Virus genome (UHGV): UHGV-0128318
DNA length: 19,979 bases
Strand: one strand, 5' to 3'
Source: a virus
The position numbers and the translations under genes were made by a program. Under the pieces are notes generated by a model. It was not told where the DNA came from. It worked only from the letters and a program-made list of their open reading frames with translations, and did not search any database. Of the stretch, positions 3,107 through 9,819 are shown piece by piece (the first letter of the stretch is position 1; each line of letters begins with the position of its first letter).

Positions 3107-3151
3107 GTTCTCACGCTCTTGAATGGTGGTAGCCCAAGCGGGGGTGAGAAT
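3107..3151 (-). promoter_or_regulatory. Leader target elements upstream of the icd-like RBS: a second copy of the 10-mer gttctcacgc (3107-3116, identical to the RNA loop at 3277-3286) and its partial complement gtgagaa (3144-3150)
   Basis: Exact 10-nt direct repeat 170 bp apart plus a 7-nt inverted copy. This allows either an intramolecular hairpin in the mRNA leader or pairing of the upstream small-RNA loop with the leader. Confidence 0.45.
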
Positions 3152-3234
3152 ACCGGCAAACGAAGAAACCGGCCTGACCGAAGTCAGCCCCGCCTGAGCC
3201 ACCATAAATCGGATATGCGCAGGTATATACACAC

Positions 3235-3256
3235 AAAAAAACACGCTGGCGCGTGT
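3235..3256 (-). terminator. Intrinsic terminator on the minus strand (acacgc-gcca-gcgtgt followed by T7), inside the leader of the antirepressor operon
   Basis: 6-bp GC-rich stem, 4-nt loop, immediate run of 7 T on the minus strand. Confidence 0.6.
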
Positions 3257-3309
3257 TGTGCGCTTCGTTTATCCGGGTTCTCACGCCCGGCTGCGGAATT
3301 TGCCGCAGC
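3235..3309 (-). ncRNA. Candidate c4/CA-type small regulatory RNA of about 75 nt: two stem-loops (3291-3308 ctgcgg/ccgcag; 3273-3290 ccggg/cccgg with loop cgugagaa) followed by the terminator
   Basis: Promoter-like TTGACG-18-TAAAGT on the minus strand (3345-3316) placed about 7 nt before the first stem-loop; loop sequence repeated and complemented in the downstream leader. Matches the known architecture of P1 c4 / P4 CI / N15 CA immunity RNAs. Confidence 0.45.
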
Positions 3310-3315
3310 GGAGTA

Positions 3316-3345
3316 ACTTTACCGTTAAAACGACGCACACGTCAA
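3316..3345 (-). promoter_or_regulatory. Putative sigma70 promoter of the anti-immunity operon (TTGACG-18-TAAAGT)
   Basis: Hexamer match and spacing read from the sequence; no other support. Confidence 0.3.
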
Positions 3346-3385: not shown

Positions 3386-3446
3386 ACAGGTGTTTTTATA
3401 GTTTGCTTGAACGAGTGATCAGAAGTTGATCGTTAATCAAAGGCCA

Positions 3447-8815: not shown

Positions 8816-8909
8816 CGTCTTTTTTCTGCTGCTGTAACCTGAGTCAACCCACAGAACATATGCCCTGCATTAAACCAGATTTACAGTAAACAATAAACCC
8901 CATATTAAG

Positions 8910-9506
8910 TCATCTACCCTCAACCATGAATGATTTGATCGTTCCGACTATTTGGTGAACAAATTCAAGATCGCTTTTCCTGAAGATGGCGCGTTGTGAG
9001 TTTGTTCCATCCAGATAGTAATTTTCATCATCAAAACGGGCCAGGCGCTGGATAGTGATATTTCCTGCAGTATCACGAACCAGAACATCCTCGCCGGGGA
9101 CCAGTTCCAGCGCAGAATCGACCAGGAGAAAATCGCCTGGCTGATAGTTTCCCTGCGTAAGATTGCTGATAGTTAACGCATACACAGTATTGCGCTGGCT
9201 GATGAATGGCAGGAATCGCTCAGTATTTGGAACCTGTCCCGGCTTCCACTCTTCATCCGGCCCACTTTCAGTTGTGCCAATAACAGGAATGCGATCAGGG
9301 TCATATTCTGTCCCATATAGCACCCAATGCACTGGCTTGCGTAAGCACTTAGCCAGGGCAATACCTATCTCCAGTGACGGCATTACGTCGCCACGTTCTA
9401 AGTTTTGGACGCCTGCTATAGAGATATCGACAGCCTCAGCAACTTCTCGCAACGTCAGCTTCATCTCTAAACGGCGTGCTTTCAGTCGTTCGCCTCGTGT
9501 TTTCAT
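8910..9506 (-). CDS. cB: Prophage repressor CB (lambda CI-like: N-terminal HTH, C-terminal S24/LexA-like domain), 198 aa
   Basis: HTH region LTLREVAEAVDISIAGVQNLERG at the N-terminus and a C-terminal domain of repressor size; divergent from cro across an operator region. Confidence 0.85.
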   Translation of the reverse strand: MKTRGERLKARRLEMKLTLREVAEAVDISIAGVQNLERGDVMPSLEIGIALAKCLRKPVHWVLYGTEYDPDRIPVIGTTESGPDEEWKPGQVPNTERFLPFISQRNTVYALTISNLTQGNYQPGDFLLVDSALELVPGEDVLVRDTAGNITIQRLARFDDENYYLDGTNSQRAIFRKSDLEFVHQIVGTIKSFMVEGR

Positions 9507-9528
9507 AGCTTAATCATAAATGATCTTC

Positions 9529-9544
9529 TTATAGCTGGCTATAA
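9529..9544. promoter_or_regulatory. Operator palindrome ttatagc-tg-gctataa (candidate CB/Cro operator 1)
   Basis: 16-bp inverted repeat in the cB-cro intergenic region; second copy 26 bp away. Confidence 0.6.
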
Positions 9545-9554
9545 AATTTATTTA

Positions 9555-9570
9555 TTATAGCTGGCTTTAA
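9555..9570. promoter_or_regulatory. Operator palindrome ttatagctggctttaa (candidate operator 2, one mismatch to operator 1)
   Basis: Near-identical direct copy of the 16-mer at 9529-9544. Confidence 0.6.
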
Positions 9571-9597
9571 TTGTTGTTTATTGTTTATAATAACAAC

Positions 9598-9819
9598 ATG
9601 AAACCAGAAGAACTTATTCGCCATTTTGGCAGTGTAGAAAAAGCAGCGGCAGGGGTAGGTGTAACACCCGGAGCTGTTTACCAATGGTTAACCGCTGGAG
9701 AGATTCCTTCATTGCGGCAAAGCGATATTGAAGTTCGTACTGCTTATAAGCTGAAGAGTGACTTTACAACTCGGCGGGTAAAGCAGTCGATTAAGGAGAG
9801 TCGTAAGCGTGGAGCTTGA
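9598..9819 (+). CDS. cro: Cro-like small HTH regulator, 73 aa (MKPEELIRHFGSVEKAAAGVGVTPGAVYQWL...)
   Basis: Divergent from cB; HTH motif; ATG at 9598 preferred over the track's TTG at 9571. A TATAAT hexamer sits at 9586-9591 only 6 nt upstream, so the mRNA may be leaderless. Confidence 0.7.
   Translation: MKPEELIRHFGSVEKAAAGVGVTPGAVYQWLTAGEIPSLRQSDIEVRTAYKLKSDFTTRRVKQSIKESRKRGA

Follow-up and report, generated by a model that had tools for sequence, protein, structure and literature searches.

Three putative operators and probably leaderless cro and cB mRNAs in the immB-like control region of an N15-like phage-plasmid of Escherichia coli

Introduction

The window analysed here, the whole stretch of 19,979 nucleotides of virus genome UHGV-0128318, contains two divergent genes, cB and cro, that are separated by a spacer of 91 nt. 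Which control elements does this spacer hold, and where do the mRNAs of the two genes begin? The initial annotation of the window proposed two palindromic 16-bp operators and a cro mRNA that would be leaderless or nearly so, and suggested a comparison with the published N15 CB operators.

Control regions of this type have been described in N15 and phiKO2. In the N15 immB record (GenBank U45242; Lobocka et al. [quoted passage not shown] As cited in PMC4488713 and PMC4997575, footprinting placed N15 CB on the OR operators, and the repressor also binds the two OL sites. For N15 Cro, an apparent KD of 90 nM was reported at OR3; OR1 and OR2 are left unbound, and the operators differ at contacted base pairs 4-6 (PMC6649833). 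Of the phiKO2 operators, CB binds OR1 most strongly, above OR2 and OR3; OL1 and OL2 are bound by it as well, and so, in EMSA, are the N15 operators, while phiKO2 Cro binds OR3 only (PMC4997575). The phiKO2 cB and cro promoters overlap operators; deletion of OR1 relieves CB repression of cro, and mutation of OR3 relieves Cro repression of cB (PMC4997575).

[quoted passage not shown]

Results

The window belongs to an N15-like phage-plasmid of E. coli

Sequence comparison indicates that the window is an E. coli N15-like phage-plasmid and not N15 itself. The cB/cro region is 99.5% identical to that of Escherichia phage YDC107_1 and 96.6% identical to that of PhiR46_1. Across 1.2 kb, the region is ~76% identical to N15 and ~78% identical to phiKO2, and identity to N15 rises to ~81% in the central 400 bp. 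The E. coli plasmid pF16EC0617-5 contains these 400 bp with 100% identity, and they were found in 18 of 5,426 complete E. coli genomes, plasmid-borne in every case.

The neighbouring genes, as annotated in CP088379 and YDC107_1, are a telomere resolvase gene, an icd-type operon, repA, cB, cro, and Q, which together have the organisation of an N15-like linear plasmid-prophage. Specifically, the gene order repA(−), cB(−), cro(+), Q(+) and the presence of both CB and Cro orthologues match the immB switch of the N15/phiKO2 type. Judged by its sequence, the region controls the choice between lysis and lysogeny in a linear plasmid-prophage of E. coli that resembles N15.

The prophage repressor gene cB occupies positions 8910-9506 of the minus strand, with its start codon at 9504-9506, and encodes a protein of 198 aa with the N-terminus MKTRGE. 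CB is 78% identical to N15 CB across 198 aa. Because several CB residues around the helix-turn-helix are unlike those of N15 CB, the affinities of the two repressors may differ. The cro gene occupies positions 9598-9819 of the plus strand and encodes 73 aa; its mRNA is predicted to be leaderless, with +1 at the A of 9598. The protein shares 87% identity with N15 Cro, has an unaltered recognition helix (TPGAVYQWL), and matches PDB 2HIN/6ON0 with an E value of 2e-32.

The cro mRNA most likely starts at its AUG

A perfect −10 element, TATAAT, is located at 9586-9591 on the plus strand, inside OR1 and 6 nt (AACAAC) before the cro ATG at 9598-9600. The initial annotation had pointed out both the hexamer and its distance, and both are read directly from the sequence. 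Because TATAAT ends at 9591, the usual +1, the seventh base downstream, coincides with the A of the cro ATG at 9598.

The distance between the hexamer and the start codon is conserved. Among 30 distinct relatives, TATAAT precedes the cro ATG with a gap of 6 nt in 15 and with a gap of 7 nt in 11. Three others, including PY54 (CATAAT), have a hexamer that matches at 4-5 of 6 positions with a gap of 6-7 nt, and the most distant relative has GATAAC (4/6) with a gap of 5 nt, so that the distance is 6-7 nt in 29 of the 30. TATAAT itself is invariant in the N15/phiKO2-type relatives (27/27) and is always 6-7 nt ahead of the cro ATG there. In the same 27 sequences, the bases of the short gap between OR1 and the cro ATG (4-5 nt) vary freely, while its length varies by at most 1 nt.

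No Shine-Dalgarno complementarity was detected before cro by anti-SD duplex energy. The value for cro, +1.5 kcal/mol, is the weakest among the 29 annotated genes of the region, most of which lie between −5 and −12 kcal/mol.

At the proximal cro promoter, the best −35 candidate matches at only 2/6 positions, which is very poor, and the −10 is not of the extended kind. This promoter was not reported by a consensus promoter scan because of the poor −35, and we take the missing call as a real weakness of the −35 and not as absence of a cro promoter.

In PY54, 5' RACE detected one mRNA species each for cro and cI, both starting at the AUG (PMC4488713). The literature searched yielded no 5'-end mapping for cro of the N15 type (N15, phiKO2), and a telomere-phage paper of 2025 in Sci Adv contained nothing on operators or transcription starts. 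The proposal of a leaderless cro mRNA thus gains support from the promoter geometry, from the lack of a Shine-Dalgarno sequence, from the distance kept in the 30 relatives, and from the PY54 5' RACE. Most likely, the cro mRNA of the window phage begins at the A of the AUG and is translated as a leaderless mRNA.

An alternative source of cro transcripts is suggested by the upstream part of the spacer. Two cro promoters, PR1 and PR2, are marked as putative in the N15 record, and the window has a −10-like TATTAT at 9553-9558 that is the counterpart of PR1. Moreover, three active cro promoters overlapping operators were seen in phiKO2 reporter fusions (PMC4997575), and the −35 of the proximal promoter is poor. 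Hence, cro could be expressed mainly from longer, leadered transcripts off upstream spacer promoters, with an internal start that lacks a Shine-Dalgarno sequence, and TATAAT would then be chiefly a part of OR1. We consider this unlikely, although it is the most serious of the alternatives. The sole 5'-end mapping in the group, that of PY54, revealed one species only, which starts at the AUG. The constant distance from the −10 element to the ATG, despite the variable bases in between, likewise argues against a leadered main transcript. In addition, the −35 of the candidate hexamer further upstream is poor too, and a leader, if made, would be devoid of a Shine-Dalgarno sequence. Because three cro promoters are active in phiKO2, leadered transcripts may nevertheless coexist with the favoured leaderless cro mRNA.

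As a separate point, conservation of TATAAT could stem from an operator role rather than from a promoter role.

The cB start mirrors the cro start

The layout of cB is the mirror image of that of cro, namely TATGAT, 6 nt, and ATG. The promoter scan reported a proximal cB promoter on the minus strand, composed of a −10-like TATGAT at 9513-9518, 6 nt before the cB ATG, and a −35-like TAGCCA at 9536-9541, inside OR3 and separated from the −10 by a 17-nt spacer. The same −35/−10 pair is annotated in the N15 record U45242 at 894-899 and 871-876. In every readable distinct relative (29/29), TATGAT or TATCAT ends 6-7 nt ahead of the cB ATG, and the six columns of the cB −10 are all invariant in the set of 27 relatives. 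The gene has no Shine-Dalgarno sequence, its anti-SD energy of −0.6 kcal/mol being the third weakest of the 29 genes. From this arrangement, the cB mRNA is probably leaderless too. The leaderless geometry of cB was absent from the initial annotation.

The N15 record starts cB four codons upstream, at an ATG within the TATGAT −10, and thereby reads MIKGMKTRGE. In the window, this upstream ATG is not in frame with cB, and its reading frame ends at a stop after MIKL; the conserved cB start is therefore MKTRGE.

Three operators in the cB-cro spacer

The first operator, OR3 (TTATAGCTGGCTATAA, 9529-9544), is a 7-2-7 dyad with half-sites TTATAGC and GCTATAA and is identical to N15 OR3 (U45242 887-902). 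The second, OR2 (TTATAGCTGGCTTTAA, 9555-9570), is the positional homologue of N15 OR2 (TTATACCTAGCTTTAA, U45242 913-928), from which it differs at 2 positions. The third, OR1 (TTATTGTTTATAATAA, 9578-9593), has 1 mismatch, at position 7, to N15 OR1 (TTATTGATTATAATAA, U45242 936-951) and overlaps the cro −10, TATAAT forming part of its right half. Because the window is a ~76-81%-identical relative and not N15, the published N15 CB operators apply by homology. The operator/spacer layout, 16-10-16-7-16, is the same in the window, in the annotated N15 operators, and in the phiKO2 operators that have been tested. The A/T-rich 10-bp spacer between OR3 and OR2 (AATTTATTTA, 9545-9554) has the same length as in N15 and phiKO2 and might conceivably act as a UP-like element.

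OR3 and OR2 differ by a single mismatch, at 9567. Specifically, the left half-site and the centre of OR2 are those of OR3, and one A-to-T change is left in the right half, where it affects base pair 4. Regarding the bases contacted by Cro, OR1 has the same differences from OR3 as N15 OR1 has, while in OR2 of the window this change in the right half-site is the only one kept.

The two 16-mers at 9529-9544 and 9555-9570, with their one mismatch, stand as originally described. When the whole window was searched with the OR3 16-mer at up to 3 mismatches, matches were found only at OR3 and OR2, each counted on both strands owing to the dyad symmetry of the site; 0.19 matches are expected by chance, and none of 200 shuffles reached 4, the observed count. 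The statement that the 16-mer occurs nowhere else in the window holds at that stringency, because this search finds only two places, but it does not extend to degenerate sites, which comprise OR1 and the homologues of OL1 and OL2.

A position weight matrix (PWM) was trained only on N15 and phiKO2 sites reported as bound. The three best matches in the whole 20-kb window are OR3 (21.6 bits), OR2 (19.9 bits), and OR1 (13.4 bits), and 0.24 matches per window are expected by chance at the score level of OR1. Conservation, assessed in 27 distinct N15-, phiKO2- and window-type sequences, follows the operators: the invariant columns number 15 of 16 in OR3, 14 of 16 in OR2, and 13 of 16 in OR1, that is, 42/48 in operators versus 7/22 in spacers. 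The motif T-A-(N)10-T-A, common to all operators (PMC4997575), is read in all five candidate sites (OR1-OR3, OL1, and OL2), and is weak evidence when taken alone because it is frequent by chance.

The initial annotation thus recognised two true homologues, those of N15 OR3 and OR2, and missed a third site, OR1. That the spacer holds two operators only, and that 9578-9593 is a promoter and nothing else, is very improbable. The sequence differs from OR3 at 6 of 16 positions, so that a 3-mismatch search misses it, but it is one base off N15 OR1, an annotated CB site, and is the third-best PWM match in the window. Among the phiKO2 operators, CB binds the counterpart of this site most strongly, and deletion of that counterpart relieves repression of cro (PMC4997575). 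Furthermore, the left half of OR1 (TTAT) is invariant although it is not part of the −10.

The inverted repeat around TATAAT and the cro start codon

The initial annotation also drew attention to an inverted repeat, ttgtt/aacaa, that flanks TATAAT. The repeat is present, and in its longest form (TGTTGTT at 9572-9578 and AACAACA at 9592-9598) is a perfect 7-bp repeat. However, it is confined to the clade of the window and is not conserved even in 97%-identical relatives; the repeat is probably incidental and has no functional part in the switch.

A perfect 7-bp repeat could form a functional hairpin that hides the cro AUG in leadered transcripts, or could be the DNA target of another protein. 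In PhiR46_1, these columns read ATGCG/CGCAT and the predicted fold has a z of −2.2; two pairs are partly compensated by changes on both sides, but one pair of this repeat is broken. The pairing is also broken in E. fergusonii and in IMG/VR intermediates, the fold of the window is no better than that of shuffles (z = −0.9), and nothing comparable occurs in the N15 and phiKO2 types. Because the hairpin would moreover be absent from a leaderless mRNA, there is little reason to credit a role of this kind.

The possibility that cro starts at TTG 9571 (82 aa), in which case TATAAT would be coding sequence and not a promoter, is hardly credible: although the frame is open from 9571 and this start is used in two GenBank records, YDC107_1 and PhiR46_1, a single additional base ahead of the ATG shifts the upstream frame in the N15-type relatives, the phiKO2-type relatives have a TAA stop with no in-frame start between the stop and the ATG, the extension MLFIVYNNN is not conserved, 9571 is not preceded by a Shine-Dalgarno sequence, the alignment to the N15 Cro crystal structure runs from residue 1, and the ATG is used by RefSeq PGAP, N15, and phiKO2. 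The TTG was rejected as the cro start on account of this non-conserved upstream frame, and the GenBank records of the closest relatives place the start 27 nt too early, within the operator/promoter.

Candidate OL operators downstream of cB

Two candidate sites are located downstream of cB. Candidate OL1 (ATATGCCCTGCATTAA, 8858-8873) is the positional homologue of N15 OL1 (U45242 214-229) and of phiKO2 OL1, and candidate OL2 (TTACAGTAAACAATAA, 8881-8896) is the positional homologue of N15 OL2 (U45242 237-252). Both are aligned to the relatives without gaps, and both keep TA-N10-TA. Candidate OL2 scores 12.0 bits (PWM rank 5). Candidate OL1 scores 7.1 bits (PWM rank 16), a level at which ~9 matches are expected by chance; it is therefore not significant alone and is too degenerate to call from its letters. 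Because positional homologues of OL1 and OL2 lie downstream of cB, the operators are probably not confined to the cB-cro spacer.

The only other notable PWM match, at 3396-3411, was rejected as a further operator. The window copy lacks T14 of TA-N10-TA, the NAR688 counterpart is degenerate, and the signal is probably the −10 of an immA-type promoter.

Discussion

The positions of the operators relative to the two predicted starts define a probable switch, the one published for N15 and phiKO2. With +1 at 9598, OR1 spans −20 to −5 and OR2 spans −43 to −28 of the cro promoter; if 9506 is taken as +1 of the cB promoter, OR3 lies at −38 to −23. CB bound to OR1 and OR2 would block RNA polymerase and turn off cro and Q, because the cro −10 is inside OR1 and OR2 lies over the −35 region. 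Cro bound to OR3 would turn off cB, as the cB −35 sits inside OR3, and Cro should prefer OR3 because its recognition helix and the OR3 16-mer are identical to those of N15. CB would probably also occupy the weaker sites at 8858-8873 and 8881-8896, and thereby limit repA transcription and plasmid copy number. The sequence, homology, spacing, and conservation of these elements, and the lack of Shine-Dalgarno sequences, are direct observations on the window phage. Binding by CB and Cro, promoter activity, and leaderless 5' ends (PY54) are carried over from the literature on relatives, and we infer from them where binding, transcription starts, and leaderless translation would occur in the window phage itself.

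N15 is similar to the window in gene order, in the 10-bp and 7-bp spacers, in the OR3 16-mer, in TATAAT within OR1, in TATGAT by the cB start, and in the OL positions. It differs in that DNA identity is ~76-81%, OL1 and OL2 are more degenerate in the window, OR2 is TTATACCTAGCTTTAA in N15 versus TTATAGCTGGCTTTAA in the window, and the gap from −10 to ATG is 7 nt in N15 versus 6 nt in the window for both genes. The Klebsiella phage phiKO2 (Hammerl et al. 2016, PMC4997575) shares the operator architecture, and its TATAAT likewise ends 6 nt before the cro ATG, whereas several positions differ in its OR1, OR2, and OL sequences. The Yersinia phage PY54 (Hammerl et al. 2015, PMC4488713) has a divergent repressor/cro pair, CATAAT followed by 6 nt and the cro ATG, an OR3-type 16-mer that differs only in the outermost bases, and cI and cro mRNAs that are leaderless by 5' RACE (PMC4488713). 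In contrast to the window, it has one recognisable operator and a 104-nt spacer, and its repressors share <40% identity with the N15 and phiKO2 repressors (PMC4997575).

The region works like the OR of lambda but is not a member of the lambda OR family. In both, three operators lie between divergent repressor and cro genes, the best site of the repressor is over the cro promoter, and the best site of Cro is over the repressor promoter. The lambda cI mRNA from PRM is leaderless, as is predicted for the repressor mRNA of the window. The lambda cro mRNA has a leader, whereas the cro mRNA of the window is probably leaderless. The region is set apart from the lambda family because the operators of the window are 16 bp and unrelated in sequence to the 17-bp operators that CI and Cro both bind, in opposite orders of affinity, in lambda, and because Cro is selective for OR3 in N15 and phiKO2. 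The fold of N15-type Cro is also unlike that of lambda Cro (PMC6649833). Because Cro binds only OR3 in the relatives, self-repression by Cro is not expected. Similarly, OR2 would be centred near −56 of the cB promoter and not at −42, so activation of the repressor promoter in the lambda style is not implied.

The only mildly novel point is that OR2 is nearly a copy of OR3 in the E. coli clade of the window. It is tempting, though speculative, to propose that Cro binds OR2 appreciably and that this clade combines lambda-like negative autoregulation of cro with leaderless mRNAs for both switch genes. Because OR2 covers the cro −35 region, Cro bound there would restore cro autoregulation. If so, autoregulation would have been regained in a phage group thought to be without it, and, with both genes leaderless, the whole decision would be independent of Shine-Dalgarno-directed initiation.

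The layout is already known from N15, phiKO2, and PY54, and no new mechanism is revealed. The value of the analysis is mainly in annotation, namely the correct starts of cro and cB. Beyond that, TATAAT-N6/7-ATG for cro and TATGAT-N6/7-ATG for cB are conserved across enterobacterial telomere phages, and the leaderless result for PY54 would extend to the N15 and phiKO2 types. N15-like phage-plasmids are common in clinical Klebsiella.

An operator-like site at the immA-type promoter

The window contains a secondary, immA-type immunity RNA system at 3122–3322 on the minus strand. Specifically, three minus-strand Rfam matches score above the gathering score: C4 antisense RNA (3122–3209), isrK (3236–3309), and the c4 a1/b1 target (3270–3322). 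The DNA of this RNA system is similar to that of phage P4.

The C4-type antisense RNA and the icd operon are preceded by a minus-strand promoter, and its −10-like hexamer, TATAAA, is overlapped by an operator-like 16-mer, TTATAGTTTGCTTGAA, at 3396–3411. In a scan with the operator matrix built from N15 and phiKO2 sites reported as bound, this 16-mer scores 12.2 bits and ranks fourth in the window. The homologous place in N15 and KpLi5 reads TTATAGTTTGCTTTAC, which is the best match to the matrix across 5.7 kb of N15. The site at 3396–3411 could be a sixth site for the prophage repressor CB at the immA promoter. Of the TA-N10-TA motif common to the operators, T14 is missing in the window, and in NAR688 the homologous position is degenerate. 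The 16-mer could alternatively be just a promoter that resembles half an operator. Directly upstream of the immA-type promoter, in the minus-strand sense, are tandem repeats containing TGATCA (3410–3435; GTGATCAGAAGTTGATCG), the N15 equivalent of which is CTGATCAGAACCTGATCAG. These repeats could serve as a −35 region or as a binding site of another regulator.

Start codons of cro and cB

The GenBank records of the closest relatives place the cro start 27 nt upstream, within OR1 (the cro-proximal operator) and the −10 element, giving a protein of 82 aa (YDC107_1, 2272–2520; PhiR46_1, 1272–1520). The RefSeq PGAP annotation starts cro at the conserved ATG, giving 73 aa. The start codon of cB as annotated in N15 (U45242; coding sequence 267–875) is contained in the TATGAT −10 hexamer (871–876). 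This ATG corresponds to 9515–9517 of the window and is out of frame in the window clade (MIKL*), so the start that is conserved is the one four codons downstream (MKTRGE). PY54 has the same pattern, ATG ATT TCG ACT ATG.

Variation around OR1

OR1 is flanked by a perfect 7-bp inverted repeat, TGTTGTT/AACAACA (9572–9598), which takes in the A of the cro ATG. In the same columns PhiR46_1 has ATGCG/CGCAT, with two pairs altered in both arms, and the pairing is broken in intermediate relatives. The fold z-scores of the repeat are −0.9 in the window and −2.2 in PhiR46_1. Compared with PhiR46_1 and the E. fergusonii relative, the window has a local substitution cluster around OR1, with 7 differences in 27 bp (9571–9597) between phages that are ~97% identical overall. 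The differences fall in the OR2-OR1 spacer, at position 7 of OR1, and in the last 4 nt before the ATG.

In the distant IMG/VR relatives L067–L069, whose Cro proteins are 52–62% identical, two dyads resembling OR3 and OR2 are kept (e.g., TTATAGACAGCTATAA and TTATAGTTTGCTATAA), as is the TATGAT/TATCAT-N6-ATG layout for cB. The OR1/−10 region 5’ of cro has diverged in these relatives, and cro of L069 may have a leader of ~20 nt.

Rearranged and duplicated records

In the Klebsiella phage Kpn74 (OQ790078, 292–1112), the cB segment and cro are on one strand. In every other relative the cB segment has the opposite orientation; the junction in Kpn74 coincides exactly with the start of cB. The arrangement may reflect either an assembly artefact or a genuine inversion. 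Several records contain two inverted copies of the region, with, for example, paired telomere resolvase genes head-to-head: CP088379 (L016, 1–3383) and the IMG/VR contigs behind L021/L022, L034/L041, and L053/L054. The doubled copies probably arose when assemblers continued the sequence across the linear plasmid's hairpin telomere.
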